Assembly (NCBI GenBank): GCA_964387305.1 | Contig: CAYLWD010000001.1 | Location: 1-26,166 of the forward strand | Direction: 5' to 3' | Source of the DNA: an uncultured archaeon | GTDB taxonomy: Archaea; Iainarchaeota; Iainarchaeia; Iainarchaeales; JAAZKV01 | DNA length: 26,166 bases | Shown: piece by piece, positions 2,898 through 19,155 of the stretch | Position numbering within the stretch: position 1 is the first letter of the stretch | Layout: the number at the start of each line of letters is the position of its first letter | Notes under the pieces: model-generated | What the model was told of the DNA's origin: nothing | Database searches by the model: none | The model's input: only the letters and a program-made list of their open reading frames with translations | Program-made: the position numbers and the translations under genes

Positions 2898-3002
2898 ATG
2901 CCACCAGTGAAAAGACCTATAGGTAGAATGAGAATGCCAAGCGGAGCACACGCAAGAATACCAATGAAAGCAGGAGGGCCAAGAAGGCCGAGAGGAAGAT
3001 AA
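2898..3002 (+). CDS. Small Pro/Arg-rich basic peptide, 34 aa: MPPVKRPIGRMRMPSGAHARIPMKAGGPRRPRGR (not in the ORF track)
   Basis: ATG at 2898, TAA at 3000-3002, with a strong SD and TATA box. Codons mostly end in A (cca, aga, gga, gca), as in the r-protein genes. Confidence 0.7.
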   Translation: MPPVKRPIGRMRMPSGAHARIPMKAGGPRRPRGR

Positions 3003-3358
3003 GTTTTCTAGGAAATTTTTGTAGAAAAAATTCCCAAAAAGTTAGAAAAGCACGGGATTCCAAGAAGTAGAAAAAAAACCACAAATTCTTGGAAACCTTC
3101 AGGAAATCCTTTAAAAACCTTTGGGTGAGGATAATTAATATTATAGTATGAAAGCTGAGTTTTTTCAGCTTTTTGACAGGTACACTACTCTCTTGCAAAA
3201 CTAGAGAACTGCGGAGGGAGCAAATGCCAATTTTCAAAAAAAATTTGGCTATTTTTGCGTGCGTGGAAACGCGTTAGTGCTCTAAAAAATGAAAAAAATA
3301 ACTGGTGAGTAATTTAGTAAAAATTTAGTTTAAATATAATTGATTTCGGTGAAATATA

Positions 3359-4381
3359 ATGGCGTCATATTCAAAACCAAGGAGAGGCTCAATGGCTTAC
3401 TATCCAAGGGTTAGGGCTAATAAAGAAACCCCAACAATGCACGCTGAAGGAACTGAGCCAAAAGCACTTACTTTTTACTGCTACAAAGCAGGAATGACTC
3501 AAGCAATTGGAAAAAATATTCACAAAGGTAGTCCAACTTTCGGACAAGAAGTTGCTGCACCATCAACAGTAATTGTTTGCCCAAATATGAAAGTGTTTGG
3601 AATAAGAGCTTACAAGAAAGCCGAAATAGGTTATGATGTTTACGGAGATGTTTACGCAGAAAGTATTAGCAAGGATTTGGACAGAAAAATACCAAAGTTT
3701 AAAACAAAGAGTCCGCACGCAAAAAACAAGGGTAAAAAAGAAGTTAAAGAAAAAAGCCCCATCGCAAAAACAGTTGCTGATTTTGAGAAAGCTCTTACAG
3801 AAGGAAAAATTGAATACTTTACTTTAATAGTTAACACCGAACCAAGAAAATTGGGTTTCAAAAAAATTCCTGACTTGGCAGAAGTAGACATCGGTGGAAA
3901 AAAAGAAGAACAATTGAATTATGCTAAAGAAAAACTTGGAAAAGAAATTACTATAGAAGAAGTAGTAAAAGAAGGAGAATTCCTTGACATTAAAGCAGTA
4001 ACAAAAGGAAAAGGATTCCAAGGCGTAATAAAAAGATTCGGAGTAAAAATGTTCCGGCCAAAAGCAAAGAAACAAAGAGTAGTTGGTTCAATTAGTCCGT
4101 GGACTCCACACACAGTAATGTTCACTGTACCACGCCCAGGACAAATGGGTTACCACAACAGGACAGAATACAATAAAAAATTAATTAAAATTTCTAATAA
4201 AGTTGAAGAAATAAATCCTGTATCAGGATTCGCTAATTATGGAATGGTAAAAGAAAAATACGCGTTAATTTTTGGTTCGGTAGCAGGCCCCGCAAAGAGG
4301 TGCATTGCACTGAGGAAAACAGTTAGACCAATAAAGAAATCAGGAATACAATTAGAGAAAGTAATTGGAGTAGTAAAATAA
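3359..4381 (+). CDS. rpl3: 50S ribosomal protein uL3
   Basis: KPRRGSMAYYPRVRA, YKAGMT, DIKAVTKGKGFQGVIKRFG and PRPGQMGYHNRTEYNK motifs; SD GGTGA at 3348. Confidence 0.98.
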   Translation: MASYSKPRRGSMAYYPRVRANKETPTMHAEGTEPKALTFYCYKAGMTQAIGKNIHKGSPTFGQEVAAPSTVIVCPNMKVFGIRAYKKAEIGYDVYGDVYAESISKDLDRKIPKFKTKSPHAKNKGKKEVKEKSPIAKTVADFEKALTEGKIEYFTLIVNTEPRKLGFKKIPDLAEVDIGGKKEEQLNYAKEKLGKEITIEEVVKEGEFLDIKAVTKGKGFQGVIKRFGVKMFRPKAKKQRVVGSISPWTPHTVMFTVPRPGQMGYHNRTEYNKKLIKISNKVEEINPVSGFANYGMVKEKYALIFGSVAGPAKRCIALRKTVRPIKKSGIQLEKVIGVVK

Positions 4382-4397
4382 TTTTTGGTTGATGATT

Positions 4398-5342
4398 ATG
4401 AAAGCAAACATACTTGGAATTGATGGCACAAAAAAAGAAAGTATAGAATTGCCTAGCGTTTTTGAAACAACTTACAACCCTAATTTAATTAATAGGGCAG
4501 TACTTGCAATGCAAAGCGCAAAAAAACAACCCAAAGGAGCTAATCCAAGAGCAGGAAAAAATACTACTGCAATTTATGTTGGAAGCAGAAAAGCACCAAC
4601 TCCGATGCGTTCAATTAATGTTGAAAGAGCAAGATTACCTAGATTGAAAAATAGGAGACAATTGATTGCAGGAAGAGTTGCTAAAGTTCCTCACGCAGTT
4701 GGAGGAATGTCTGCACACCCACCAAAAGCTTGGAAAAAGTATTGGGAAAATATTAACAAAAAAGAAAGACGATTAGCATTAAAGAGTGCAATCGCTGCAA
4801 CAGCAAGCAAAGCACTAGTAGAAAAAAGATTTATTTTTGCAGGCGAATTACCTTTAATTGTTGAAGACAAAATGGAATCAATTACAAGAACAAAAGAACT
4901 AATAGGAATTTTTTCAAAAATTGGTGTAGTAAATGATGTTGAAAATGCTAAATCAAAGATAAGGGAAAGAGCAGGTAAAGGAAAAAAAAGAGGAAGAAGA
5001 TTTAAAGGAAAAAAGAGTTTACTTATTGTTACAGCAAAAAATGATAGAGTACTAAAAGCAGCTAGAAACATGCCTGGCGTAGAAGCAGTTACAATTAATT
5101 CATTAAATGCTGAATTACTTGCACCGGGCGGAGTGGCTGGAAGGCTAGTAGTTTGGACAGAAGGAGCAATAAATGCGCTTGGAGAAGGAAAAAAATCACC
5201 AACTACAAAAAGAGTTAGTGCAAAAGAAACAAAAATTGTTTTTGGAGATTGGAGAAAAAACAGGAAAGCAAAAAGAAATATTGCTGAAGCAAAAACAAAA
5301 GAATTAAAGAAAAGCAATCCAAAAAGTGAAGAGGAAGAATAA
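4398..5342 (+). CDS. rpl4: 50S ribosomal protein uL4 (with ~53-aa C-terminal extension)
   Basis: GG..AHPPKAWK, INKKERRLALKSAIAAT and LLAPGGVAGRLVVWTE motifs. Start moved to ATG 4398. Confidence 0.97.
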   Translation: MKANILGIDGTKKESIELPSVFETTYNPNLINRAVLAMQSAKKQPKGANPRAGKNTTAIYVGSRKAPTPMRSINVERARLPRLKNRRQLIAGRVAKVPHAVGGMSAHPPKAWKKYWENINKKERRLALKSAIAATASKALVEKRFIFAGELPLIVEDKMESITRTKELIGIFSKIGVVNDVENAKSKIRERAGKGKKRGRRFKGKKSLLIVTAKNDRVLKAARNMPGVEAVTINSLNAELLAPGGVAGRLVVWTEGAINALGEGKKSPTTKRVSAKETKIVFGDWRKNRKAKRNIAEAKTKELKKSNPKSEEEE

Positions 5343-5360
5343 AAAATATGGTGAGCATGA

Positions 5361-5816
5361 ATGGTTAAACTTAGTGAAGAACAAAAAAGACAAGAACTAC
5401 AAGAAGAGAATGCTAAAGCACAAGAGAAAACAAATGTTGCTAAAGAGAATATTGCCAAAGCTAGCACTAAAAACAAGGAAGACAAAGCAAAAAAGAACTT
5501 TGAAGCAAAAAAAACAGAGGGAAAAGAAATTAAAGGAATCACAGTTAATGCGACATTAGAAGATTTGGGAATGATTTTTTACCCACTGGTTACTGAAAAA
5601 TCAGTTAACATGATTGAAGCAGAAAATAAAATTACATTTATAATAAATGATAAAGCCAATAGAGAAAAAGTTAAGATACTTGTAGAAAAAATGTATTCAG
5701 TTAAAGTAGTAAAAGTAAATATTGTTAGAGATAGGAAAGGAAGAAAAAAAGCAATTGTTAGACTCGCAAAAGAAAATAAAGCATCAGAGTTAGCAACCAA
5801 GTTAGGAGTATTATAA
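5361..5816 (+). CDS. rpl23: 50S ribosomal protein uL23 (with ~65-aa N-terminal extension)
   Basis: IFYPLVTEKS...NKITFII...KKAIVRL...A.ELATKLGVL; SD GGTGA at 5350. Confidence 0.96.
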   Translation: MVKLSEEQKRQELQEENAKAQEKTNVAKENIAKASTKNKEDKAKKNFEAKKTEGKEIKGITVNATLEDLGMIFYPLVTEKSVNMIEAENKITFIINDKANREKVKILVEKMYSVKVVKVNIVRDRKGRKKAIVRLAKENKASELATKLGVL

Positions 5817-5833
5817 TTTTTTTGGTGAAAAAA

Positions 5834-6556
5834 ATGGGTAAACGATTAATATCACAAAGAAGAGGAAAAGGAAGTCACACCTTTAAAGCAAAACACAAAG
5901 GAATTGCCGCAAGATACTCTGCAATTAACACCCAAAAAATTAATGACACTTTAAAAGGGCATTTAGTTGAATTTATTAAAGACACGGGACGGAATGCAAT
6001 CCTCGCAAGAATAAAATTCAATTCAGGCGAAGAAGAAACTATAGTTGCTGCTGAAGGATTAATTTTGAATCAACCAATTCAACAAGGAAAAGAAGCAGGA
6101 ATTAGTATAGGAAATATTTCAGAAGTACAGTACTTACCCGAAGGATGCCCAATATTCAATATTGAAAAAAATAAGGGCGATGGAGGAGTATTTGTAAAGA
6201 GTGCAGGAAATTATGCATTATTAATGGCAAAAGATAGCAATAGCGTAACAGTAAAAATGCCTTCAGGAAAATTATTGAAATTACCTTTAGATGTTAGAGC
6301 AACAATTGGGAATGCGTCTTGTGGAGGAAAATCAGACAAGCCGTTCGTTAAAGCAGGAACAAAGTTCTATGCAATGAAAGCAAAGAGAAAAATGTACCCG
6401 ACAGTGAGGGGAGTTGCAATGAATGCAGTTGACCACCCATTCGGAGGAGCACAACACCACCCCGGAAAATCTAAGAGCACATCAAGAAACGCACCACCAG
6501 GAAGAAAAGTTGGAGCAATTGCATCAAAGAGAACAGGGAGAGCAAAGAAAGGTTAA
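5834..6556 (+). CDS. rpl2: 50S ribosomal protein uL2
   Basis: MGKRLISQRRGKGS, VRGVAMNAVDHPFGG and APPGRKVGAIASKRTG motifs. Confidence 0.98.
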   Translation: MGKRLISQRRGKGSHTFKAKHKGIAARYSAINTQKINDTLKGHLVEFIKDTGRNAILARIKFNSGEEETIVAAEGLILNQPIQQGKEAGISIGNISEVQYLPEGCPIFNIEKNKGDGGVFVKSAGNYALLMAKDSNSVTVKMPSGKLLKLPLDVRATIGNASCGGKSDKPFVKAGTKFYAMKAKRKMYPTVRGVAMNAVDHPFGGAQHHPGKSKSTSRNAPPGRKVGAIASKRTGRAKKG

Positions 6557-6610
6557 AATTAGAGATGCAATTATGGAAAATTATTTTGAGAAATGTTGAG
6601 AGGTTTTGAT

Positions 6611-7000
6611 ATGGCTAAAGAATTCACTTACAGAGGAAAAACGCTTGAAGAATTAAAGGCAATGCCCCTCGAAGAATTTGGAAAACTATGCAATTCAAGG
6701 GCCAGAAGAAGCTTGAAAGAGGGTTTTGACAAAAAACTTTTTAGCAAAATATTGAAATACAATCCAACGAATGTTAAACAAAAAGCAATTAGAACACACA
6801 GTAGAGATACTGTAATTATACCTCAAATGATTGGAGTAAAAATTGCTCTATATAGAGGAAATACTTTTGAGTTAATTGATGTAAAACCAACAATGATTGG
6901 ACATTACTTAGGAGAATTAATTTTAACACGAAAAAGATTAATGCACGGAAAAGCAGGAATCGGAGCAACGAAGAGTTCAACTGCAATAACTGCAAGGTAG
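6611..7000 (+). CDS. rps19: 30S ribosomal protein uS19
   Basis: FTYRGKTLEELKAM, IRTHSRD.VIIPQMIG and MIGHYLGE motifs. Confidence 0.96.
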   Translation: MAKEFTYRGKTLEELKAMPLEEFGKLCNSRARRSLKEGFDKKLFSKILKYNPTNVKQKAIRTHSRDTVIIPQMIGVKIALYRGNTFELIDVKPTMIGHYLGELILTRKRLMHGKAGIGATKSSTAITAR

Positions 7001-7024
7001 TAAATTTATTATTGGTGAAATGCA

Positions 7025-7498
7025 ATGGTTAAGAAAAATTATCAAGTGGAATTAGGCGACAAAAGAAAGACTGCGCGAGCAATAATAACAAACGCCCAAG
7101 TTTCATTGAAATATGCAACAACTATTTGCAACAAAATAAAGGGACAATTGGTTAACAAATCAATTGCATCAATGCAAAGAATAGAAGCGCACGAAGAATA
7201 TTTACCATTAACAAGATACAACAAAAAAATTGGACACAAAAAAGGAAATGCCTTAGGAACAACAAAATCAGGACGTTACCCAGAAAGAACCGTTGCAAAA
7301 TTTATTGAATTATTAAAATTAGTGAAAAACAATGCAGAAGCAAAAGGACTTGATTCAGAAAAATTGTCAGTTTTGAATGCATTCGCAAGCATGGGAATGT
7401 CAAGATACAATTCACAACCAAAAGGAAAAATTGGCGGAAAAATGCGTAGGCACAAATCAACACACTTAGAAATAATAGTAACGGAAGTGAAAGCATGA
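7025..7498 (+). CDS. rpl22: 50S ribosomal protein uL22
   Basis: VSLKYA, GRYPE and NAE.KGLD motifs; position in the operon. Confidence 0.96.
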   Translation: MVKKNYQVELGDKRKTARAIITNAQVSLKYATTICNKIKGQLVNKSIASMQRIEAHEEYLPLTRYNKKIGHKKGNALGTTKSGRYPERTVAKFIELLKLVKNNAEAKGLDSEKLSVLNAFASMGMSRYNSQPKGKIGGKMRRHKSTHLEIIVTEVKA

Positions 7499-8466
7499 TT
7501 GAAAGAAAATTTATTCAACAAAATTTGAGAAAAATGGAATTAGAAGAATACTTGGGTAAGAAACTTGACCGAGCAGGATTCACTCATGCAGATATTGTGA
7601 AGACTCCAATGGTTACAAGAATAATTTTGCACGTGTCAAAACCAGGACTTGCAATTGGAAAAGGAGGACAAACAATAAAACAACTAACTGAAGTTATTGG
7701 AAGAGATTACAAAATCGATAACCCCCAAATAGAAATTCAAGAAGTGAAGAACGCAAACTTGAATGCAAAAATACTGGTAGAAAAAATGGCTGCAATGATT
7801 GAAAGAGAATTTTCTTGGAGAAGCGTAGTATTCAAAGCAGTTAGTGAGATAGTTAATTCGGGCGCACAGGGAGTAGAACTTGTTGTTAAAGGAAAATTGA
7901 GTGGAAAAGGTGGAAGAAAAAGAAAAATGAGGATTGCATTTGGTTACATGAAAAAAATTGGTGAACAATCAAGATTAGTTGATTTTGCAAAAGCCCCAGC
8001 TTATCCAAAAGCAGGTGCAATTGGTTTGAGATTAAGAATAATTCATCCAGGGGTAGTATTCCCTGACAAAATTGATGTAACCAAAGTTATTCAAGACAAG
8101 AGACAACTTGTTGAAGACGCAAAAGAAGTGCTTGAGAAAAAAGAAGACAAAGTAAAAAAAATTGTTATTGAAGAAGAAATAGAAGAAGAAGTTGATGGGG
8201 AAGTAATAAAAGAATACAAAAAAGTAGAAGCTTATGTTCACAAAAAAGAAGCACAAGACGAAAAAGAAACAAAAACTGAAAAGAAAAAAGTGAAAGAAGA
8301 AAAAAAGGAAGTTAAAGTAAAAGAAGCAATAAGCGAAAAAAAAGAAGAAACGAAAGAAACTGAAAAGAAAGAAGAAAAAAAAGAAGTTCTGGATGAAAAG
8401 AAAGAAACAAAAGAAGAAAAAGTAAGTGAAAAAAAGGAAGAATCCCAAGAAGAGAAAAAGGAATGA
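7495..8466 (+). CDS. rps3: 30S ribosomal protein uS3 (with ~125-aa Lys/Glu C-terminal tail)
   Basis: KH domain PGLAIGKGG, GAQGVELVVKGKLSG; ATGA overlap with rpl22. Confidence 0.97.
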   Translation: MIERKFIQQNLRKMELEEYLGKKLDRAGFTHADIVKTPMVTRIILHVSKPGLAIGKGGQTIKQLTEVIGRDYKIDNPQIEIQEVKNANLNAKILVEKMAAMIEREFSWRSVVFKAVSEIVNSGAQGVELVVKGKLSGKGGRKRKMRIAFGYMKKIGEQSRLVDFAKAPAYPKAGAIGLRLRIIHPGVVFPDKIDVTKVIQDKRQLVEDAKEVLEKKEDKVKKIVIEEEIEEEVDGEVIKEYKKVEAYVHKKEAQDEKETKTEKKKVKEEKKEVKVKEAISEKKEETKETEKKEEKKEVLDEKKETKEEKVSEKKEESQEEKKE

Positions 8467-8484
8467 GAAAATTGAGTTGATTTT

Positions 8485-8685
8485 ATGAAGTACAAAGAAT
8501 TGAAGGAAAAAAGAGACGAAGAGCTTAATTCATTAGTTATTGAGTTAAAGCAAGAACTTGCTAAAGAAAAAGCAAAGACCGTTTCAGGAACAAAAGCAGA
8601 AAAGCCAGGACGAGTAAAAAAATTGAGGCGAGATGTTGCTAGAGTACTTACAGAAATTACGACAAGAAAGGGGGTTGTGGATTAA
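8485..8685 (+). CDS. rpl29: 50S ribosomal protein uL29
   Basis: ELK.K...EL...L..EL...KPGRVKKLRRDVARVLT pattern. Confidence 0.93.
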   Translation: MKYKELKEKRDEELNSLVIELKQELAKEKAKTVSGTKAEKPGRVKKLRRDVARVLTEITTRKGVVD

Positions 8686-8988
8686 ATGCAAGAGGTTGAC
8701 AAGATTAGTGGATTACCAAAAGATTTGTTCGATATTAGCAATATTGAAAAAGAACAACAAAAAATAAAAATTGTGGTAATTAAGAGAAGATTTAGAAAAT
8801 TAATTACAATCGTATCAGGATTTGATGATAAGGATAAAGCAAAAGAACTTGGAAAAGAAATGAAAATGAAATTTGCGTGTGGAGGAACTGTAAACGGAAC
8901 AGAAATTGAATTACAAGGAGATCACAGACAAAAAGCAAAGAAATTTTTGATTGAAAAAGGGTACAAAGAAGAATTGATTGAAGCATGA
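8686..8988 (+). CDS. Translation initiation factor aIF-1 (SUI1)
   Basis: SGLPKDL, KFACGGTV...IELQGDHR; conserved position after uL29. Confidence 0.96.
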   Translation: MQEVDKISGLPKDLFDISNIEKEQQKIKIVVIKRRFRKLITIVSGFDDKDKAKELGKEMKMKFACGGTVNGTEIELQGDHRQKAKKFLIEKGYKEELIEA

Positions 8989-9048
8989 ATGAATTGATTT
9001 GAAGATGTATTATTGAAGAAATGGAATTGATATTTTTGGAGGCAATAG

Positions 9049-9348
9049 ATGATTAAGACAGCGCATTACGAAATCAACGCGAAGAACTTAGCGTTCCACG
9101 AGTTGAACGGCTTGCGAGTCAAAGTCATTGAAAGCACCGATAAAGAAAAAAATGGAATAGACGGAGAAGTGATTGGAGAAACGAAGAACACATTGATAGT
9201 TTTGGTAAATGGAAAAGAAAAAGTTTTACCAAAAAACGAATGTGTATTTGAGTTTATCCTAGGCAAAGAAAAAGTAAAGTTGAATGGAAAAATTATTTGT
9301 AAAAGAGCAGAAGATAGAGTAAAAGATTGGAGGAACAACAATGGCTGA
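9049..9348 (+). CDS. rnp1: Ribonuclease P protein subunit Rpp29 (component 1)
   Basis: HELNGLRVKVIES...G..G.VIGETKNTL...PK..CVFEF; conserved position between aIF-1 and uS17. Confidence 0.92.
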   Translation: MIKTAHYEINAKNLAFHELNGLRVKVIESTDKEKNGIDGEVIGETKNTLIVLVNGKEKVLPKNECVFEFILGKEKVKLNGKIICKRAEDRVKDWRNNNG

Positions 9349-9694
9349 AGAAAAGAAAGAAAGAGCTGTTACAGCGAAAGTTGTTAAAGAAACACAAGGT
9401 TCTGGAACAAGCGGAACACAAAAAGAAAAAACTTATCCTATTAGAGGAAATGTTTTTGAAGGAAAAGTTGTTTCAGCAAAATCAAACAAAACAGTTACTA
9501 TTGAAAGAGAATTAACGCATTACATTTCTAAATACGAGAGATACTTGAAAATTCGGTCAAGAATAAAAGCACACAACCCAGAAAGTATTAATGCAAAAGA
9601 AGGAGACATTGTAACGGTTGGAGAAACTAGGAGAATATCAAAAACAAAGAGTTTTGTTGTAATAAAAATTTTGAATAAAGGAGAAAATAATTAA
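9341..9694 (+). CDS. rps17: 30S ribosomal protein uS17
   Basis: RGNVFEGKVVSAK..KTV.IER...KYERY...S.IKAHNP...GD.V.VGETR.ISKTKSFVV. Confidence 0.96.
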   Translation: MAEEKKERAVTAKVVKETQGSGTSGTQKEKTYPIRGNVFEGKVVSAKSNKTVTIERELTHYISKYERYLKIRSRIKAHNPESINAKEGDIVTVGETRRISKTKSFVVIKILNKGENN

Positions 9695-9726
9695 GAAAAT
9701 TGAATTTTGAATTATTAGGTGAGAAA

Positions 9727-10125
9727 ATGAAAGCAATGAGTATTCACAATAATAAGAGCTTGACGCTGAAGAGCCATGTTACTTGTTCCGATAATAGTGG
9801 AGCAAAAGAAGTTTACATGATTTCAATATTCAACGCAAACACAATGAAAAAAGGATTATTCAAAGCAGGAATTGGTTCAATGGTTAATGTTGTAGTATCA
9901 AAAGGAAAACCCGAAATGAGGGGAAAGATTGAGAGAGCAGTTGTAATTAGAACAAAACAAGAATACCGAAGACCTAGCGGATTAAGAGTGAAATTTGAAG
10001 ATAATGCAGTTGTTTTAGTTGATGATAAGGGTTTGCCAAAAGCTTCAGAGATAAAGGGTTGCGTGGCAAAAGAAGTTGCTGAAAGATTCCCAAAAATAGC
10101 AGGATTAGCACCTTCAGTTGTTTAG
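9727..10125 (+). CDS. rpl14: 50S ribosomal protein uL14
   Basis: CSDNSGAK, KGKPEMR, EYRRPSGLRVKFEDNAVV motifs; SD AGGTGA at 9717. Confidence 0.97.
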   Translation: MKAMSIHNNKSLTLKSHVTCSDNSGAKEVYMISIFNANTMKKGLFKAGIGSMVNVVVSKGKPEMRGKIERAVVIRTKQEYRRPSGLRVKFEDNAVVLVDDKGLPKASEIKGCVAKEVAERFPKIAGLAPSVV

Positions 10126-10181
10126 AATTAATTTGATTATGATTGTATTGATTGGGATTTGGAGAAAAAATTGGTGATATT

Positions 10182-10559
10182 ATGTCAAGTGCAAGAAAAA
10201 GCAAGAAAGCATTCATAGAAATGCCTTTACACAAAAGAGTAAAAGCAATTGCTGCTCCGGTTGCGAAAAAAATGGAAAGCGAATACGGAAAAAGAGCAAT
10301 ATCAATTAGAAAAGGAGATACAGTAAAAATTGTTCGAGGAAGTTTCAAAGGAAAAGAAGGGAAAGTAATTGAAGTTATTTTGAGTAAATTAAAAATAATT
10401 GTTGATTCAGCAAAAAGAAAAAAAAGTGACGGAACAGAATTCAATGTAGCAATTGACCCATCAAAGGTAGTTATAGTTGATCTTAATAAAAGCGATTCAA
10501 AGAGATTTGGGCACCAAAAAAAGAGAAAAGTAGAAGCAAAAACGGAGAAAAGGAAGTGA
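10182..10559 (+). CDS. rpl24: 50S ribosomal protein uL24
   Basis: YGKRAISIRKGDTVKIVRGSFKGKEGKV, IDPSKVVI; SD GGTGAT at 10173. Confidence 0.96.
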   Translation: MSSARKSKKAFIEMPLHKRVKAIAAPVAKKMESEYGKRAISIRKGDTVKIVRGSFKGKEGKVIEVILSKLKIIVDSAKRKKSDGTEFNVAIDPSKVVIVDLNKSDSKRFGHQKKRKVEAKTEKRK

Positions 10560-10566
10560 GTATAAA

Positions 10567-11262
10567 ATGGGTAACAAGGGACAAAGAAAACGACAAAAAA
10601 GAATAAGCATGCAAAAGTCGATTAGCATCGCTAGAAAAGAACACGTTTGGGCAATTAGAACAAATCCCGGCGCACATAAAAAAGAATTATCCGTGCCCTT
10701 AGGAACGGTTATTAGAGATTATTTGAAGTTAGCAACAAACCTTAGAGAAGTAAAGACAATTCTAAGAGAAAAACAAGTAAAGGTAGATGGAAAAGTTAGA
10801 GAAGATATTGCATTTTGTGTAGGATTATTTGATGTAGTTGGAATAGATAAAGAAAAAAAGCAATTCAGAATGCTTTTGGATAAAAAACAAAGAATTTATG
10901 CTAAAGAAATGACTGAAAAGGAAAATACAAAAATTGCAAGAATAGAACACAAACACGTTACAAGCAAAGGAATACAAGTAACTACAAGCGACGGGAGAAT
11001 ATTTTCTGGAATAAGTGCAAGGGTTGGAGATTCTTTGAAAATAAATTTTGAAAGCAATAAAGTTGATAAAGTATTAGAAATGAAGGAAGGCGCAAGCGTT
11101 TATGTTATTGGTGGAAGCCACGCAGGAAAAACTGCAAAAATAAATGCAATAATTGCAGGAACCCAAGCAAGAGAAAAATTAATAAAATTAGAACAAAATG
11201 GAGAAGAATTTGAAACAATAGTAAAAAACATTTTTGTAATAGAAAAAACAGGAGATTTTTAA
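10567..11262 (+). CDS. rps4e: 30S ribosomal protein eS4
   Basis: PGAHKKELSVPL, VKVDGKVRED..F.VGLFDVV, VYVIGGSHAGK motifs. Confidence 0.96.
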   Translation: MGNKGQRKRQKRISMQKSISIARKEHVWAIRTNPGAHKKELSVPLGTVIRDYLKLATNLREVKTILREKQVKVDGKVREDIAFCVGLFDVVGIDKEKKQFRMLLDKKQRIYAKEMTEKENTKIARIEHKHVTSKGIQVTTSDGRIFSGISARVGDSLKINFESNKVDKVLEMKEGASVYVIGGSHAGKTAKINAIIAGTQAREKLIKLEQNGEEFETIVKNIFVIEKTGDF

Positions 11263-11318
11263 TAAAGCCAAGATAAAATTGTGGCATAAAAAAGTGAAAA
11301 ATGAAACGGTTGATGATT

Positions 11319-11819
11319 ATGGATATGAAAGAAATTTTGATTGACAAAATTGTAGTCAACATGGGGGTAGGCGGAGACCCAGATGAAATGAAAAGAGCAC
11401 AAAAAATAATGGATGTTGTTACAAAAAGAAAGTCAATTCAAACAAAAACACAAATGAAAGCACCCGAATGGGGTTTAAGGCCAGGACTTGCAATTGGATT
11501 AAAAGTTACTTTCAGAGGGAAGAGTGCAAGAGAATTTTTTGATAACACCATACTTGCTAAAGAAAAAAAATTGAGTGCAAAAAACTTTGATGAAAGAGGA
11601 AATTTTGGTTTTGGGGTTAAAGAATATATTGATATTCCTGGAATGCGATACGACCCAAAATTAGGAATCCGTGGCTTTGATGTGCTTGTTACCCTAAAAA
11701 GAAGAGGATATCGAGTTAAATCAAGAAAATTAAAACCAAGTAAAGTTGGAAAATCGCACGTAATAAACAAGCAAGAAGCAATTGACTTCGTGAAAACATT
11801 AGGAGTTGAAATTGAATGA
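11319..11819 (+). CDS. rpl5: 50S ribosomal protein uL5
   Basis: KIVVNMGVG, FDERGNFGFGVKEYIDIPGMRYDPKLGIRGFDV motifs. Confidence 0.97.
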   Translation: MDMKEILIDKIVVNMGVGGDPDEMKRAQKIMDVVTKRKSIQTKTQMKAPEWGLRPGLAIGLKVTFRGKSAREFFDNTILAKEKKLSAKNFDERGNFGFGVKEYIDIPGMRYDPKLGIRGFDVLVTLKRRGYRVKSRKLKPSKVGKSHVINKQEAIDFVKTLGVEIE

Positions 11820-11986
11820 CTGACACAGTAAAACAAAAATCAGAAAATGACAAGATGAAAAAAAGGAATAGAACTTGCAAAATTTGTGGAACAAGAAAAG
11901 GTTTTGTTAGAAAATACAAAATAGGAATTTGCAGGCGCTGCTTTAAGGATAATGCAGAAAGAATTGGATTTAGGAAATACGAGTGA
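11816..11986 (+). CDS. rps14: 30S ribosomal protein uS14 (56 aa, C4 zinc ribbon; not in the ORF track)
   Basis: My translation: MTDTVKQKSENDKMKKRNRTCKICGTRKGFVRKYKIGICRRCFKDNAERIGFRKYE. It has an ATGA overlap with rpl5 and sits in the canonical position. Confidence 0.95.
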   Translation: MTDTVKQKSENDKMKKRNRTCKICGTRKGFVRKYKIGICRRCFKDNAERIGFRKYE

Positions 11987-12000
11987 AAAAAGGTGATTTT

Positions 12001-12393
12001 ATGAGTTTGATTGACCCAGTAGCAGGAGCATTTACGCAAATAAGGAATGCTGCCAACTCGGCACAACAAGAATTAACAATACAACAAGGCTCGAATTTCC
12101 TTGGAGAATTATTGAAATTAATGAAAGAAAATGAATACATTGAGGACTATTCAAGAGAACAAGAAAAAAATGTTGCTAAGTTCAAGGTAAAGCTTAATGG
12201 AAAAATAAATGATTGTAAAGCAATAAAGCCAAGATACGCAGTTACCAAGGACGAGTACGAAAAATTCGAGAAAAGATACTTGCCTGCAAGAGATGTTGGA
12301 TTGATTATAGTATCAACTTCACAAGGAATAATGACTCACAAGGATGCAAAGCAAAAGAAAATTGGAGGAAGGTTAATCGCTTACTTGTATTAG
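12001..12393 (+). CDS. rps8: 30S ribosomal protein uS8
   Basis: DPVAGAFTQIRNA, LNGKINDCKAIKPR, EKRYLPARDVGLIIVSTSQGIMTH; SD GGTGAT at 11992. Confidence 0.97.
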   Translation: MSLIDPVAGAFTQIRNAANSAQQELTIQQGSNFLGELLKLMKENEYIEDYSREQEKNVAKFKVKLNGKINDCKAIKPRYAVTKDEYEKFEKRYLPARDVGLIIVSTSQGIMTHKDAKQKKIGGRLIAYLY

Positions 12394-12447
12394 TGCAAGT
12401 TAGTGATGACAAGAAATAATAAACTAAATCGAATGAATGTGATTTTT

Positions 12448-13050
12448 ATGACAGAAAAAGAAATGATTAAAGTAATTAAAGTGCCTGAGCAGATTAAGGT
12501 TGAAGTTATTGACGACAATACTTTAGAATTAAAATCTGATAAGGGTTCATTGAAGAGAACATTCAAGAGTCACAGATTAAAAATTAGCCATAAGGGAGAA
12601 CACATTACTCTTGAGGGGGCACCAAGCACAAAACAAACAAAAGCACTAATAGAATCAGTAACTGCGCACATTAGAAATATGGTTGAAGGATTGTTGTTTG
12701 GTTACAAAATAAAATTAAAAATTTGTTATTCACACTTCCCAATGACTGCAATGGTTGAAGGTGAGAGATTGAAAATAAAGAACTTTACTGGAGAAAAAGA
12801 TTTTAGGTATGCAAAAATCGTGCCGGGGGCAAAAGTAGAAGTAAAGGCACAAGAAATTACAATTACCGGAATAGATAAAGAAGTAGTGGGGCAAACAGCA
12901 GGAAACATGGAACTCGCGACAAAAGTACGCGGAGGAAAAGATATTAGGAGATTACAAGACGGAATATTTGTTACAGAAAGAGAATACAAACACAAGGGTT
13001 CTGAAGAATTACTTAAAGTAGAATCCGAAAAGGTAGTAGAGGTGCAATAA
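12448..13050 (+). CDS. rpl6: 50S ribosomal protein uL6
   Basis: AHIRNMVEGL..GY..KLKICYSHFP, KNFTGEK, D.R..QDGIFV; start moved to ATG 12448 after GTGAT. Confidence 0.96.
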   Translation: MTEKEMIKVIKVPEQIKVEVIDDNTLELKSDKGSLKRTFKSHRLKISHKGEHITLEGAPSTKQTKALIESVTAHIRNMVEGLLFGYKIKLKICYSHFPMTAMVEGERLKIKNFTGEKDFRYAKIVPGAKVEVKAQEITITGIDKEVVGQTAGNMELATKVRGGKDIRRLQDGIFVTEREYKHKGSEELLKVESEKVVEVQ

Positions 13051-13051
13051 A

Positions 13052-13705
13052 ATGGTTGAAACTTTGAAAGAAACAAGTGCAAATACTGCAACAGAAAAAG
13101 TTATTACCAAAAAAATTACACCAACAGAAAAAGTTAGTATAAAAACAGCAGAAACAAAAACAACTAAACTAAAAAAAACTGATGAAGTAAAAACAGAGAA
13201 CAAAAAGGACGAAACCAAAGCTGAAGGCAAAAAGATTGAATCTAAAAAAAATGAAGTTAAGAAAGTTGAGTCAAAAAAAGTTGAAACTAAGAAGTATATT
13301 CCGTTTGAAGTTAAAATTAAAGTGAAGAAAAGCAAAGAAGCAAAAGAATTACAAGAAAAACTTAAAACAAAGAAAAAGCACCCAACTTTCAGAGGAAGGT
13401 TTGGAAAGAAATGTATTAGAAAAAAATCAATTGAGAAATGGAATAAATGGAGACACCCAAACGGAATCGATATGAAGAAAGAAAAGAAATACGGAGCAAG
13501 ACCAAAAACAGGTTACGCTAATCCCGCGTGGATGAAAGGAGTACACCCATCAGGATACAGAGAAATTGTTGTTAACAATATTAGTGATTTACAAAAAGTT
13601 AATGTGAATACAGAAGCTGCAAGAATTGGAGCTTGTGTTGGGAAAAGAAAATGGAATACAATAGTAAAAAAAGCGGGAGAAATGAAAATACACGTTTTGA
13701 ATTAA
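13052..13705 (+). CDS. rpl32e: 50S ribosomal protein eL32 (with ~90-aa N-terminal extension)
   Basis: C-terminal half KHPTFR...WRHPNGID...GY.NP...GVHPSGYREIVVNN...VGKRK...VLN; SD GAGGTG. Confidence 0.95.
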   Translation: MVETLKETSANTATEKVITKKITPTEKVSIKTAETKTTKLKKTDEVKTENKKDETKAEGKKIESKKNEVKKVESKKVETKKYIPFEVKIKVKKSKEAKELQEKLKTKKKHPTFRGRFGKKCIRKKSIEKWNKWRHPNGIDMKKEKKYGARPKTGYANPAWMKGVHPSGYREIVVNNISDLQKVNVNTEAARIGACVGKRKWNTIVKKAGEMKIHVLN

Positions 13706-13746
13706 CGGTTAATATTTTTAAATGGAATTAAAATTAGGTGAATGAA

Positions 13747-14187
13747 ATGGAATTAAAGACAGCAAAAAAGCTTGCAGCAAGCATTTTGAAGGTTGGCGTG
13801 GGCAGAGTATACATAAAACCAACTGATTCACAAAAAGTAAGCGAAGCAATGACAAAAGATGATTTGAGAGCACTTATTGGTGAAAGGATTATTAAAAAAA
13901 GATTTTCAGAAGAACAATCAAGAGGAAGAGCAAGAGAATTACACAAAAAGCAAAAAAAGGGAAGGAGACGAGGAAAAGGAAAAAGAACTGGTGGAAAAGC
14001 AGCTAGAACTAATCCAAAAGAAGCTTGGATTGGTAGGGTAAGAGCACAACGTGCTATGCTTAGAGAAGTTGTTAAAGAAAATCCAGAGGCAAAGAAAAAA
14101 TATCGTGAAGTTTACAACAAAATCAGGGGAAATTATTTCAAAGGAAAAAAATATGTTAAAGAATACTTGATGGAAGGGAAAAACTGA
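13747..14187 (+). CDS. rpl19e: 50S ribosomal protein eL19
   Basis: LAASILKVGVGRVYI, SRGRAR, GRRRGKGKRTG.K.AR, W..RVRAQR motifs. Confidence 0.96.
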   Translation: MELKTAKKLAASILKVGVGRVYIKPTDSQKVSEAMTKDDLRALIGERIIKKRFSEEQSRGRARELHKKQKKGRRRGKGKRTGGKAARTNPKEAWIGRVRAQRAMLREVVKENPEAKKKYREVYNKIRGNYFKGKKYVKEYLMEGKN

Positions 14188-14762
14188 TGGCTACTAAAAA
14201 AACTTACAAGACAAAGTTCAGGCGAAGGGCTGAAGGCAAAACCAATTACGAAAAGAGACTTGCTTTAGTAAAATCTGGGAAAGTAAGAATTGCTGTAAGA
14301 AAAACTGATAAGAGAATAATAGCGCAAGCAATAAAGTACAATAGAGTAGGTGACGAAACAATTGCTAACGCAGATTCAAGGGAATTAATGAAGTTTGGTT
14401 TTTATGGAACAAACAATACTCCGTCAGCATACCTAACCGGATTGTTAATCGGAAAAAGATTACTTGCAAAAGGAGAAAAAATAGCAATACTTGATATTGG
14501 GTTAAGAACACCAAGTCACGGAAATGTTTTATTTGGAGCACTAAAAGGAATTTCTGATTCAGGAATATCAATAAAACACAACCCCCAAGCAATTCCAAAA
14601 GAAGATAGAATAAACGCAACAGAATTAGACAAATATGCAAAAACTTTGGGAGACAAAGCAGAAAAAATGTTTTCAAGATATATTAAAGCTGGAATAAAAA
14701 TCGGGGAATTCAATAAAGCATTTAGTATAACAAAAACAGAAATAGAGAAGGTGAATAAATGA
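14187..14762 (+). CDS. rpl18: 50S ribosomal protein uL18
   Basis: FRRRAEGKTNYEKRLAL, N.PSAYLTGLLIG, ILDIGL motifs. Confidence 0.96.
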   Translation: MATKKTYKTKFRRRAEGKTNYEKRLALVKSGKVRIAVRKTDKRIIAQAIKYNRVGDETIANADSRELMKFGFYGTNNTPSAYLTGLLIGKRLLAKGEKIAILDIGLRTPSHGNVLFGALKGISDSGISIKHNPQAIPKEDRINATELDKYAKTLGDKAEKMFSRYIKAGIKIGEFNKAFSITKTEIEKVNK

Positions 14763-15511
14763 ATAGAAAAAGAGTAAATCCTAGAGGAGAAAAAGGCGGA
14801 CGCCCAGGATTTGGCGGAAAAGAAAAAACTGAAGAAGAAAGGAATCAAGAAAAAATTGTTAAAGCACTTGCTGAAAAAGAAAGAATTTTGAGTAATTGGA
14901 CCCCAAAAACAGTGTTAGGAAAAAAAGTTAAAGCCGGGGATATTAATTCACTTGATGAAATATTTAATAAAGGGCAAAAAATTTTGGAACCACAAATAGT
15001 TGATTCGTTAGCAAAATTTGAAGAAGTTACTATTGATGTTGCAAAAACAACTCACGTTGTTAGAGCTGGAAGAAAATTTTCTTACAGAGCAACCGTATTA
15101 ATTGGAAACAGAGCAGGATACATTGGAATAGGTACTGGAAAAGCTGTTGAAAGATTCCCCGCAATAGGAAAAGCGGTTAATGACGCAAAATTAAATTTGA
15201 AGAGAATATATTTGGGAGCAGGTTCTTGGGAAGAACAACCAACAACAGAAAAACATTCGATTCCATTCAAAGTAAAAGGGAAATGCGGGGGAGTACAATT
15301 AGTGTTATGGCCTGCACCAAAAGGGACTGGACTTGTGGTTGGAAAAAATGTTAGAGTTGTTTTAGAATTAGCTGGAGTAAAAGATGTTTGGAGTAAAGCA
15401 ACAGGAAGTTCTGACACAAGATTAAACTTTGTTAGAGCAGGGCTAGATGCTTTAGAACAAACTGGAAAAATGAAAGCATCAAAAGATATTGAAGAAAAGA
15501 TGACAAAGTGA
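14759..15511 (+). CDS. rps5: 30S ribosomal protein uS5
   Basis: WTPKT.LG..VK.G, LEPQIVD, HSIPFKVKGKCG, PAPKGTGLV motifs. Confidence 0.97.
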   Translation: MNRKRVNPRGEKGGRPGFGGKEKTEEERNQEKIVKALAEKERILSNWTPKTVLGKKVKAGDINSLDEIFNKGQKILEPQIVDSLAKFEEVTIDVAKTTHVVRAGRKFSYRATVLIGNRAGYIGIGTGKAVERFPAIGKAVNDAKLNLKRIYLGAGSWEEQPTTEKHSIPFKVKGKCGGVQLVLWPAPKGTGLVVGKNVRVVLELAGVKDVWSKATGSSDTRLNFVRAGLDALEQTGKMKASKDIEEKMTK

Positions 15512-15546
15512 ATTTAAAAATAAATGATTTTTTGTGAGTGATTGAA

Positions 15547-15975
15547 ATGTATGTTGCAATAAGAGTAAGAGGGAGTATTGGTTCTAAACCAGACACTAAA
15601 AGAACTTTAGAAACACTTGGTTTAAAGAGAACACATACTGCAGGAATTTATCCAAAAAAAACAGATGTATTAGTGATGTTGAGAGACGTTTCAGGATACT
15701 TAACTTATGGAGAAGCAACAGAAGAAACAGTTAAATTGCTTATAGAAAAAAAAGGAAAACCAATGCATCCTGAAGACAAGTTAGATGCATCAAAAGCAAT
15801 TAGTGCATTAAAAGCAGGAAAATCGATTAGTAGCGTTGGAATAAGAAATCAATTCAGATTAAGTCCGCCAAGGAAAGGATGGGAAAGAGGCGGAATAAAG
15901 AAACCCTTCACAGTAGGTGGAGCATTAGGGTACCGTGGAGAAAAAATTAATGATATAATAAAAAGAATGATTTAA
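15547..15975 (+). CDS. rpl30: 50S ribosomal protein uL30 (archaeal long form)
   Basis: AIRVRG, FRLSPPRKGWERGGIKKPF..GGALGYRGEKINDIIKRMI. Confidence 0.96.
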   Translation: MYVAIRVRGSIGSKPDTKRTLETLGLKRTHTAGIYPKKTDVLVMLRDVSGYLTYGEATEETVKLLIEKKGKPMHPEDKLDASKAISALKAGKSISSVGIRNQFRLSPPRKGWERGGIKKPFTVGGALGYRGEKINDIIKRMI

Positions 15976-16002
15976 TTGGTGCAAAAATTTGAAGGTGTTT
16001 TT

Positions 16003-16509
16003 ATGGTTGTAAGAAAGAGAAGGAAAAAAAATAAATTAATGGGACAAAGGACTAGAGGCGCAGGAAACACTAAAAATAGAAGAGGAGCTGGTTCTAGAGG
16101 TGGAAGAGGAGCATCAGGAGAAAACAAGCACAAATGGAATTCTGGAAATAGATACAAGGAACCAAACTATAAATTGAAAAATAATGCTGCAAATAAAAGA
16201 GAAATTAGTGTTGGAAAATTGTGTGAAATGATTGACGGAATGGTTGCAAAAGGAAGAGTAAAGAAAGATGGAGAATATTATATTGTTGATAAGAAATCAA
16301 AATACAACAAATTATTGAGCCAAGGAGAAGCTGATAAAAAAATTATTGTAAGAATAAACGCTTCAATGGGGGCAATAAAAAAAATTTTGAGTGCTGGTGG
16401 AAAATTTGAATACAAAAAGAAGGGCGTTGATGAAAAAGAATTGAGTACAATGACTGAGGATGATGAATTCGAAGTTGACGAAACATTAACAGAAGAGGAC
16501 GAACAATAA
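16003..16509 (+). CDS. rpl15: 50S ribosomal protein uL15 (acidic C-terminal tail)
   Basis: G.RT.G.G..KNRRGAGSRGGRG.SG..KHKW; AS.GA.KKI...GG. Confidence 0.95.
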   Translation: MVVRKRRKKNKLMGQRTRGAGNTKNRRGAGSRGGRGASGENKHKWNSGNRYKEPNYKLKNNAANKREISVGKLCEMIDGMVAKGRVKKDGEYYIVDKKSKYNKLLSQGEADKKIIVRINASMGAIKKILSAGGKFEYKKKGVDEKELSTMTEDDEFEVDETLTEEDEQ

Positions 16510-16541
16510 TATAATTAAAATAATAAAATCGAGGGATTTGT

Positions 16542-17918
16542 TTGGGCGTAGTTGATATCTTAGTAGGCATTTCGAGTATGTTGCCTGAAATAAAAGCGCC
16601 AGAAAAAGAAGTGCCTTTTAAAACAAAAATGTTAATCACTTTAGGTGCAGTAATCATATTCTTTGTACTAGGAAATATTTGGTGCATTGGATTAGATACT
16701 TTATCAGCTAGCGTACAAAACATACAAATTTATCAAACATTATTGGCTTCACAAATGGGAACACTAATTAGTGCAGGAATTGGACCAATAGTAATGGCTT
16801 CAATCTTCTTACAACTATTTGTTGGAGCAAAAATACTTAACATCAGTTTTTCTGATCCGGTAGGAAGATCAAAATTCCAAGCACTACAAAAAGTACTTGC
16901 GGTGGCTTTGTGTTTCATTGAAGCATTCATTTACGTTGCTTCTGGATTATTGACTCCACTCGGAGGAGTATCATTATTCAATCCAGTAATGTGGTTAGTA
17001 ATAGCACAAGTGGCATTAGGTTCGTTAATTTTGCTTTATTTAGATGAAATATTATCAAAATACGGAATTGGTTCAGGGATTAGTTTATTCATTGCAGCAG
17101 GAGTTGCTGGCGGATTGTTTTGGCAAATATTTATGCCACCAATTGATTCAGTGTTCAATCCAATACTTGCAAATGGAGGAATAATCTGGAAACTAATAAC
17201 CTTAGGCGACCCATGGTTATTGTTGCCAATACTTGGAGTAATTGGAATATTTTTAGTAGTTGTTTTTGCTGAAGGAATCCATGTAAATATCCCAATAACT
17301 TTAGGAAGAAGTGGAACAGGCGGACGATATCCTGTAAAGTTTTTGTATGTAAGCAATATGCCTGTAATATTAGCAATGGCACTATTTGCTAATGTGAAGT
17401 TATGGTCATTATTCTTAGAAAAAGTACCTATCCTTGGGCAAATGATGGGCGCTGCCGCATGGGCAGTACAAATACCTAGTATTGGTGGAATGAGTATAGT
17501 TGAAGGAATAGTTAGACAAGGAATCACAAGCCAAGCAGTACAATTAGCAATATTGCAAGCAGGAATATTCCTTATTTTATTAATTATTGTTTGTGTAATA
17601 TTCGGTTGGCTTTGGACAGAAATGAGTAACCAGAGTACGAGTGCAGTAGCAGAACAATTACACAATTCAGGAATGCAAATTCCTGGGTTTAGGAGCGACA
17701 AAAGAATAATTGAGAAAGTACTTGGGCGTTATATCCCTCCAATAACAATCCTCGGTTCGATATTTGTTGCACTATTAGCAGGAATCGGAGACATGGTTTT
17801 GAGCGGATTATCCTCAGGAACAGGAATATTATTGACAGTTGGAATCATTTACAGATTCTATGAAGAAATAGCAAAAACACAAGCAGAAACAATAGCAAAG
17901 CTATTGGGAAAAGGTTGA
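16542..17918 (+). CDS. secY: Preprotein translocase subunit SecY
   Basis: About 10 hydrophobic segments; LPEIKAP, GIGPIV.ASIFLQL, KYGIGSGISLFIAAGV, YPVKFLYVSNMPVIL, IPGFRSD, GTGILLTVGI. Probable TTG start after GAGGGA. Confidence 0.98.
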   Translation: MGVVDILVGISSMLPEIKAPEKEVPFKTKMLITLGAVIIFFVLGNIWCIGLDTLSASVQNIQIYQTLLASQMGTLISAGIGPIVMASIFLQLFVGAKILNISFSDPVGRSKFQALQKVLAVALCFIEAFIYVASGLLTPLGGVSLFNPVMWLVIAQVALGSLILLYLDEILSKYGIGSGISLFIAAGVAGGLFWQIFMPPIDSVFNPILANGGIIWKLITLGDPWLLLPILGVIGIFLVVVFAEGIHVNIPITLGRSGTGGRYPVKFLYVSNMPVILAMALFANVKLWSLFLEKVPILGQMMGAAAWAVQIPSIGGMSIVEGIVRQGITSQAVQLAILQAGIFLILLIIVCVIFGWLWTEMSNQSTSAVAEQLHNSGMQIPGFRSDKRIIEKVLGRYIPPITILGSIFVALLAGIGDMVLSGLSSGTGILLTVGIIYRFYEEIAKTQAETIAKLLGKG

Positions 17919-17962
17919 AAGCACAACCCCAAAAAAATAGAGTAAAAATTAAAAAAGTGAGG

Positions 17963-17976
17963 CAGTGCTTTTAAAA
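17963..17976 (+). promoter_or_regulatory. Possible internal promoter (TTTTAAAA 17969-17976) upstream of DUF106
   Basis: TATA-like box in a ~85-100-nt gap. The context AGTGCTTT(T)AAAA recurs at ~24170. Confidence 0.3.
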
Positions 17977-18002
17977 CATTGCGGTTGAGAAAATAGTAGT
18001 AC

Positions 18003-18545
18003 TTGGTGAGTCTAATAGAGGTAATGAACCCCGCAGTTTTGATATTTATAGCAGCATGCATAATGGCTATAATCTCGAGGATATTAGAGTGGAAACTCGT
18101 TCCGAGAGCAGCAAAAGAAATGCAAAAAGAATTAAAGGAAAAACAAAACGAGTATAATAAATTTATTAAGGAGGGAAAAGGAGCTACCAAAGAAAGCGAA
18201 AAATTACAGTCAGAAGTAATGGAAATGACTTTGAAATTAATGCAATCAAGAATGAAAGTCATGTATGTTTCGTTGATATTATTTGGAATAGCTTGGTGGG
18301 TACTTGGAACACAATTCGGTGGAAAAACATTTGAGGCATTGCACGCATTGCCAAAATTCAATGGTTTTTTTCTATTGAATCCGTTCAGTTGGGTTCCTAC
18401 CGGATTAACAATACAAACAGGAATGTTGAAAGCGTATGTGTTTTCATCACTCGAAGCTAGTATTGCAATTACAATAATATTGAAATTGTTGAGAAAATTT
18501 AATGCGAAAGAAATTTTGGAAAAAAAATTTAATTTAAAATTTTGA
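18003..18545 (+). CDS. DUF106 / EMC3-TMCO1 (Oxa1-superfamily) membrane protein; start may be 18024
   Basis: TM1, then a coiled coil (KEMQKELKEKQ...EKLQSEVMEMTLKLMQ), then further TMs. Canonical position between secY and eL34. Confidence 0.85.
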   Translation: MVSLIEVMNPAVLIFIAACIMAIISRILEWKLVPRAAKEMQKELKEKQNEYNKFIKEGKGATKESEKLQSEVMEMTLKLMQSRMKVMYVSLILFGIAWWVLGTQFGGKTFEALHALPKFNGFFLLNPFSWVPTGLTIQTGMLKAYVFSSLEASIAITIILKLLRKFNAKEILEKKFNLKF

Positions 18546-18561
18546 TTGAAAGTGATAAAAA

Positions 18562-18903
18562 ATGGTTAAACCGTACGAAAAGAGTTTGAAACACAAATTC
18601 AGAAAGACTCCAGGCAGAGTAACAAAAAAAGTTTTCTTTAAAGAAAAATCACAGAAAAAAAAATGCCCTGTTTGTGAAATAGAACTAGCTGGAGTAGCAT
18701 CAGGAAGAAAAGCAAAACTTGGAAAATTAAGTAAGTCGGAAAAACGTCCAAGTGCACCGTTTGGCGGGGTACTATCAGGAAAAGGAAGAGAACAAGTTTT
18801 TGTTGAAGCTGCTAAAGTGCACACAGGCGTAAAAACAATTGAAGATGTTGAAGAAAAGTACAAAGCATTTGTGAAACAAGCATTAGAAATGATGAAGAAA
18901 TAA
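18562..18903 (+). CDS. rpl34e: 50S ribosomal protein eL34
   Basis: RKTPG, CPVC..ELAGV, SKSEKRPSAPFGG motifs; position. Confidence 0.93.
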   Translation: MVKPYEKSLKHKFRKTPGRVTKKVFFKEKSQKKKCPVCEIELAGVASGRKAKLGKLSKSEKRPSAPFGGVLSGKGREQVFVEAAKVHTGVKTIEDVEEKYKAFVKQALEMMKK

Positions 18904-18928
18904 TTTAATACAAAAAGGATTGATGATT

Positions 18929-19144: not shown

Positions 19145-19155
19145 GATTGATGATT

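Follow-up and report, generated by a model that had tools for sequence, protein, structure and literature searches.

The window, a stretch of 26,166 nucleotides from an uncultured archaeon of the Iainarchaeota, carries upstream of rpl3 an RNA element (core approximately 3170-3288) whose family had not been catalogued before. We consider it reasonably likely that the rpl3-rpl4 operon mRNA has its 5′ leader at 3140-3358 and that this uncatalogued element mediates feedback by a ribosomal protein. The promoter, the core and the helices P2 and P3 are found again 5′ of rpl3 in approximately 70 genomes and metagenome contigs of relatives, where compensatory changes accompany them. The conserved element is present in a single copy per genome, invariably on the sense strand between promoter and rpl3, and its helices covary. 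The first-pass annotation had read the region as the long, structured 5′ leader of the uL3 operon and as a candidate archaeal r-leader, and the conserved sense-strand fold and the covariation of P2 support this.

The rpl3 loci were sampled from 40 relatives, and their upstream regions were read. The 30 loci retrieved, which represent 11 families of the order, have one layout in common. It starts with a TATA box (TTTWTAAA), the core GYASACU, the variable helix P2 and the junction AAAU, which is followed by R-C. The hairpin P3 comes next, with a U-tract (YURUUUUU) as its 3′ side or tail, and then zero to two variable hairpins. In the 3′ part, a strand that complements the core is followed by an A/U-rich spacer, a Shine-Dalgarno (SD) sequence (GUGA or GGUGA) and the ATG. 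In the window, the features are as follows.

3102-3125, plus strand: promoter, with the BRE-like GGAAATCC, the TATA box TTTAAAAA (3110-3117) and the conserved downstream CCTTTG.
3138-3143, plus strand: predicted transcription start, approximately 30 nt past the TATA start, placed by archaeal spacing and the conserved TATA-to-core distance.
3151-3172, plus strand: P0, an optional 5′ hairpin (AAAGCUGA / UCAGCUUU), a perfect 8-bp inverted repeat.
3170-3183, plus strand: P1 5′ strand, UUUUUG...GGUAC, part of the closing helix in the minimum-energy fold; overlaps the core.
3180-3186, plus strand: conserved core GUACACU (consensus GYASACU), from the alignment of 29 sequences.
3187-3221, plus strand: helix P2, with A3187.C3221 as wobble closing pair and 3188-3196 paired with 3211-3220.
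3222-3225, plus strand: junction J2/3, AAAU, in columns that are invariant or nearly so.
3226-3249, plus strand: hairpin P3, GCCAA / UUGGC, which begins at this R-C in most relatives.
3250-3256, plus strand: conserved U-tract UAUUUUU (consensus YURUUUUU), from T-run counts over 61 leaders.
3261-3272, plus strand: hairpin P4, GCGU-GGAA-ACGC, in the minimum-energy fold; the region is variable in relatives.
3277-3288, plus strand: P1 3′ strand, GUGCU C UAAAAA, in the minimum-energy fold; the core-complementary strand in relatives.
3289-3347, plus strand: A/U-rich extension specific to the window, with CUGGUGAG at 3302-3309, a TATA-like box (TTTAAATA, 3329-3336) and the upstream copy of an 18-nt direct repeat.
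3348-3352, plus strand: Shine-Dalgarno GGUGA, 6 nt before the ATG; nearly all relatives have GUGA or GGUGA at this position.
3359-4381, plus strand: rpl3 (uL3), Pfam Ribosomal_L3, 3.9e-67.
4389-5342, plus strand: rpl4 (uL4), Pfam Ribosomal_L4, 1.7e-36.

The window is contig 1 of a genome assembly of 766 kb in 119 contigs that is 79.5% complete. The genes rpl3 and rpl4 open a ribosomal-protein cluster in which approximately 20 or more ribosomal proteins are encoded. The closest uL3 among the relatives compared is 66% identical to that of the window. The stretch 3003-3358 had been described as non-coding, and indeed no plus-strand open reading frame of at least 50 amino acids was found within it. 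The sole long frame there is on the minus strand, starts with TTG, has 106 amino acids and is without a Pfam match. ARAGORN detected no tRNA or tmRNA in the region. A small upstream reading frame of 18 codons (3148-3204) was considered and rejected, as the relatives have no counterpart.

The evidence for a conserved fold was assessed helix by helix. The G, A, A, C and U of the core were invariant in the 29 aligned sequences, which represent several families of the order. In the window, the strands of P2 are CTCTCTTGC (3188-3196) and GCGGAGGGAG (3211-3220). The first-pass annotation had suggested a covariation check on the rpl3 upstream regions of relatives, and there the structure proved to be conserved. 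In the structure-naive MAFFT alignment of 29 sequences (A2), 89.6% of the P2 cells were paired compared with 62% in shuffles. Double changes were observed in 7 of the 8 pairs, a result equaled by none of 500 shuffles, and the signal collapsed when the partner strand was slid. Across 68 sequences aligned to model R1, 91.7% of the cells were paired, with 171 double-change cells; this alignment was fitted to the model, and the MAFFT result is the cleaner test.

The closing pair of P2 was unusual. Among 64 distinct sequences it was G.U in 49, A.C in 13 and G-C in 2, and A-U occurred once only, in a pattern match in genome G036. Members of a single genus differ between G.U and A.C (L011, L014 and L015 compared with L012, L020 and L025), which points to selection for wobble geometry on the plus strand only. 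The near-exclusive use of G.U and A.C suggests a constraint of the kind found at specific recognition sites. Many G.U pairs and the A.C/G.U pair fit the plus strand only. The folding energy of the region alone is weak evidence, since the z-score was -2.2 on the plus strand and -4.0 on the minus strand.

P3 was recovered by RNAalifold in the genus-level set and also in the folds of single sequences. The support for P3 comes from these per-sequence folds and from reading by eye, as MAFFT shifts the register of this hairpin. By eye, the first pair of P3 is A-U where the motif is AAAUAC, and G-C or G.U where it is AAAUGC. RNAalifold also proposed a short helix GYA:URC, in which C8 is accompanied by G64 in 16 of 16 cases, a pattern that follows the phylogeny, and this helix was rejected. 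P3 was preferred over it because R64 also covaries with its P3 partner.

Several pairings had been noticed in the window before, and the comparison assigns most of them a place in the element. The hairpin at 3151-3172, the stem at 3188-3220 and the GCCAA/TTGGC hairpin are real and correspond to P0, P2 and P3, respectively; the arms of the last lie at 3226-3230 and 3245-3249, one base short of the end at 3250 given earlier. The hairpin GCGT-GGAA-ACGC is present as P4, located at 3261-3272 and not at 3262-3273. In relatives, the P4 region contains none to two hairpins of unrelated sequence. A two-way pairing of 3218-3224 had also been proposed. GCAAA (3220-3224) pairs with TTTGC (3254-3258) in the minimum-energy fold of the window; the alternatives are not conserved in relatives. 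The sequence TGCTC, named as the second partner of this switch, is present one base away from the place given (3278-3282) and is instead part of the 3′ strand of the long-range helix P1.

In P1 of the window, GGUAC (3179-3183) is paired with GUGCU (3277-3281), and the helix is lengthened by U-A pairs. A closing helix P1 was predicted in most of the minimum-energy folds of relatives. Matched changes were seen in L003 and L021 (GUAGAC/GUCUAC), L062 (GCAGAC/GUCUGC), L028 and L053 (GCACAC/GUGUGC) and L026 (GGGAUGCG/CGCAUCCC), as well as in the family of the window (GAGUAC/GUACUC). The 5′ segment of a leader paired with its own tail at -7.8 kcal/mol compared with -6.8 kcal/mol for the tails of others; the permutation p value of 0.0002 overstates the case for P1, as the relatives are not independent. 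A simple longest-helix test of P1 performed no better than shuffles in this A/U-rich RNA, and the register of the helix differs from family to family. P1 is the least secure of the helices, and its support is modest. The resulting model is a multi-helix junction closed by P1, whose conserved centre would consist of the GYASACU and AAAU strands and the wobble G.U/A.C pair at the base of P2.

The position of the element relative to the promoter is conserved as well. The TATA-like TTTAAAAA reported at 3110-3117 is present and is the conserved promoter of the relatives. The CCTTTG downstream of it corresponds to SCTTTY in relatives, and the arrangement of TTTWTAAA and SCTTTC upstream of the element is kept in nearly all of them. 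The distance from the TATA start to the core is 33-46 nt in most genomes. In relatives where it exceeds approximately 50 nt, the gap is filled by a P0 hairpin of unrelated sequence. In the window, the P0 arms AAAGCTGA and TCAGCTTT (3151-3158 and 3165-3172) have 8 nt each and are 100% complementary. The spacing between TATA box and transcription start is well established for archaea. Because the TATA-to-core distance is fixed unless P0 is inserted, the element is placed at the 5′ end of the transcript, and transcription is accordingly expected to start a few nucleotides ahead of P1, or of P0 where this is present. As a P0 hairpin can come between promoter and core, the conservation of the core reflects more than a promoter function.

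At the other end of the leader, the distance to the start codon was examined. In the family of the window, the 3′ strand of P1 stops approximately 24-31 nt before the ATG; in the window itself approximately 70 nt lie between them. The spacer of the window, which is approximately 45 nt longer than that of relatives, is explained by a local direct repeat. The copy at 3323-3340 is 83% identical to 3343-3360, and the second copy covers the SD and the ATG. The TATA-like TTTAAATA at 3329 is a diverged copy of the CGGTGAAATATAAT SD region. In relatives, the conserved SD is found 6-8 nt before the ATG. Direct masking of the SD by P1 is not evident, because P1 ends 12-18 nt short of the SD in the family of the window. 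In the same-family relatives that were read, the stretch from P1 to the SD contains no T-run of at least 5 and no conserved second promoter.

These data bear on the question of whether rpl3 is transcribed through the element. The first-pass annotation had pointed to the second TATA-like box (3329-3336) as a promoter that could give a near-leaderless mRNA. The box is there, but it has no conserved counterpart and sits in the 18-nt direct repeat, and the GGTGA Shine-Dalgarno, which precedes the ATG by 6 nt, speaks for an mRNA with a leader. A related alternative is that an independent small RNA runs from the 3110 TATA box to the U-tract and that rpl3 has its own promoter, such as TTTAAATA. The small RNA would be approximately 110 nt long in the window and approximately 75-90 nt long in relatives without P0. 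It would have a strong promoter of its own and a conserved U-tract after P3, and the window has a TATA-like box 30 nt before the ATG. However, that box belongs to the local duplication, the short gap between P1 and the ATG in same-family relatives contains an SD, and P1 pairs the core with sequence past the U-tract, so that the functional unit spans the tract. We regard a separate small RNA as very improbable. With the short gap between P1 and the ATG, no conserved second promoter or T-run and an SD in place, rpl3 is most likely transcribed through the element.

The distribution of the element was investigated with model R1 and with a strict pattern of the core. Under strict filters, R1 gave exactly one match per genome in 38 of the 151 genomes of the order. 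All 13 matches that were checked adjoin rpl3 on its 5′ side and on the same strand, and 9 of the 13 are in genomes not sampled before. The strict core pattern found the same core in 76 of 215 genomes of the phylum, compared with approximately 8 matches in all for the reversed control. Six families were missed by R1. Five of them carry divergent copies before rpl3, recognized by eye where both R1 and the strict pattern had found nothing, with a longer P2 or with AACUGC or AAUAC instead of AAAURC; in a 500-kb genome among the missed families the element is absent. Beyond the order, a reduced copy was seen in one lineage and no copy in three genomes from two further families. Among 80 metagenome loci with uL3 relatives, R1 matched 9 and the core pattern 7, and the element was limited to the closest uL3 relatives (44-61% identity). 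It was intergenic in every copy examined.

The element was then compared with known systems. The first-pass annotation had pointed to an Rfam search, which returned no family at gathering score for the window or for the loci of 20 relatives. In E-value mode only noise was obtained, for example snoRNA and miRNA models and S10-Clostridia at E=2.7, and the L4-Archaeoglobi family was not listed even at E values up to 10. L4-Archaeoglobi is a candidate L4 leader located 5′ of archaeal rplC (Eckert & Weinberg 2020, PMC7247131). It is the closest known element, alike in genomic position and in the general type of fold. Both are archaeal structured RNAs; L4-Archaeoglobi lies 5′ of rplC-rplD-rplW-rplB, has an outer helix that closes a junction with internal hairpins and is a presumed sensor of uL4, likewise a candidate. 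In contrast, its conserved letters (CUGA...UCAG in the outer helix, GGGU...ACCC in the inner helix) are unrelated to GYASACU/AAAURC when the published alignment is compared with A2, and approximately half of its examples overlap a methyltransferase gene, whereas the window-type element is intergenic in all copies examined. The element is assigned to a new RNA family because no Rfam model matches it and it has no conserved letters in common with L4-Archaeoglobi.

In E. coli, uL4 acts on the S10 leader via both attenuation and translation (PMC10931766). That leader likewise precedes an operon with uL3 and uL4 and, as a structured 5′ UTR, combines attenuation at a U-tract with translational control (PMC10931766). 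However, it is bacterial, confined to some Gammaproteobacteria and dependent on NusA, its operon starts with rpsJ and not with rpl3, and there is no similarity in sequence or structure to the element of the window.

A different conserved leader was found 5′ of rpl3 in another archaeal lineage, in the metagenome loci L128, L133, L134 and L140-L188. The order in this leader is TATA box, ACCAGACAU, a first hairpin (CGGGCAAUUC...GAAUCCCG), a second one that contains a U-run, and GAAAUGUCACGGUUUGG. This ACCAGACAU...GAAAUGUCACGG leader resembles the window element in its place between a strong TATA box and rpl3, in a junction with at least two hairpins and in a U-rich P3; it differs in its conserved letters and in the order of its elements, and the comparison gave no evidence of homology. 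Possibly, several archaeal phyla share a more deeply rooted group of rpl3 leaders, with the element of the window as one branch.

Likeness between an r-leader and the rRNA binding site of its protein is common, although not universal. The 23S rRNA of three relatives was used to look for such mimicry because no 23S gene was found in the assembly of the window. The best match of model R1 to these three 23S sequences had E=6.9, and a motif scan of the relatives' 23S gave nothing consistent. Two resemblances were considered and rejected. The segment GUACAC-AAAAAUGC at 338-351 of E. coli 23S resembles core plus junction by coincidence, as the homologous stretch is not conserved in the 23S of relatives. 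A likeness to GAGUAC-hairpin-GAAUAUGG in domain I of 23S is weak and confined to the window's own family.

The lack of a convincing rRNA mimic in these scans would suit a riboswitch or another sensor, in which the junction binds a small molecule, an ion or a non-ribosomal protein that reports the growth state. The compact junction with approximately 14 conserved nucleotides, the variable helices and the U-tract as a possible expression platform are in keeping with this. However, a riboswitch class typically governs several genes with a link to its ligand, and the element occurs once per genome and before rpl3 only; feedback by ribosomal proteins is also the established rule for leaders of such operons. 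A sensor of this type seems distinctly unlikely to us. By analogy with the known leaders, the operon is probably under feedback from a ribosomal protein. To our knowledge, very few archaeal feedback elements for ribosomal proteins are known, and none has been tested for the large cluster led by rpl3.

For this feedback we propose that a ribosomal protein encoded downstream, when in excess over rRNA, would bind the conserved junction, upon which expression of the operon would fall. Among the many proteins of the cluster, candidate ligands are uL4 by precedent and uL3 by proximity. Two routes are conceivable. In the first, premature termination would be promoted at the conserved U-tract. In the second, loading of the 30S subunit would be hindered; a bound protein could do so because P1 ends close to the ribosome-loading region.

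Oligo-U is the stop signal of the archaeal RNA polymerase. A T-run is found approximately 50 nt past the core, with at least T5 in 47 and at least T6 in 37 of 61 leaders. On the sense strand of the operon in the window, runs of T6 or longer occur at 0.39/kb compared with 6.0/kb for A6 or longer, and the U-tract is thus enriched far over a background depleted of T-runs. Attenuation is plausible because oligo-U is the archaeal termination signal and the tract is conserved in an operon poor in T6+ runs. The most specific form of the proposal is an attenuator operated by a ribosomal protein, in which free uL4 or another protein of the cluster, bound at the wobble-pair junction, would decide whether RNA polymerase stops at the P3 U-tract. 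We hold this version only tentatively and give it a low probability; we know of no described archaeal r-protein attenuator. The U-tract is usually paired with an A-run inside P3 and may be structural and not a termination signal. As a separate observation, the strand asymmetry of homopolymers extends over the ribosomal-protein cluster (3359-21500, plus strand), with 13.4/kb for A5+ versus 1.8/kb for T5+ and 3.1/kb for A7+ versus 0.11/kb for T7+. This asymmetry is consistent with selection against oligo-U terminators within the operon.

The leader could also act constitutively, without feedback by a ribosomal protein, as a stabilizer of the mRNA against decay that depends on the 5′ end, as a substrate for processing, or as a standby site or enhancer of translation. 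Methanogen mRNAs for ribosomal proteins have unusually long structured 5′ UTRs whose processing raises translation (PMC5499594), and a movable SD-like YUGGUGAG loop, present in about half the leaders, would suit recruitment of the 30S subunit. However, an invariant junction sequence or a closing pair limited to wobbles, kept across many families, is seldom required of hairpins that stabilize an mRNA or serve as standby sites, and a constitutive role is unlikely in our estimate. The YUGGUGAG hairpin-loop module is identical to the local SD consensus (GGUGA) and is placed on different arms of the leader in different families: on P2 in the family of the window, in the P0 loop in L027 and L028 (two other families) and on 3′ hairpins in several more families (L051, L059, L061 and L095). 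Beyond the real SD, GGUGA is found in about half of 60 leaders. The loop could be a 30S standby site, a decoy site or a tertiary contact, and the copy at 3302-3309 of the window is possibly a duplicated SD region.

For feedback regulation, which we favor, the element offers a well-defined RNA of approximately 110 nt for studying the balance between ribosomal proteins and rRNA in DPANN archaea with reduced genomes. Its assets are clear covariation, an invariant junction of small size and a pair that is, unusually, restricted to wobbles. As the operon otherwise avoids U-runs, the conserved U-tract opens regulated termination in archaea to direct tests in vitro. The RNA family could also be entered in RNA databases, which would improve the annotation of Iainarchaeota genomes.

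The region 5′ of the leader was inspected as well. A basic reading frame of 34 codons (2898-3002) and a reading frame of 228 amino acids precede the leader, and a Pfam search of the latter gave no match. The 34-codon frame is rich in Pro and Arg, has a strong AAGGAGG SD and is likewise without a Pfam match; a hairpin with a T5 run follows it at 3006-3040. In relatives of the same family, the gene at this place is mostly a long plus-strand reading frame, open for more than 370 amino acids in most, and several of these frames close with a hydrophobic stretch (LFAFG-type motif). The BRE/TATA of the leader promoter is directly preceded by an inverted repeat of 12 nt (GGATTCCAAGAA / TTCTTGGAAACC, 3055-3066 / 3086-3097, 92% complementary). 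This repeat could be a site for a transcription factor or a piece of the terminator of the upstream gene.
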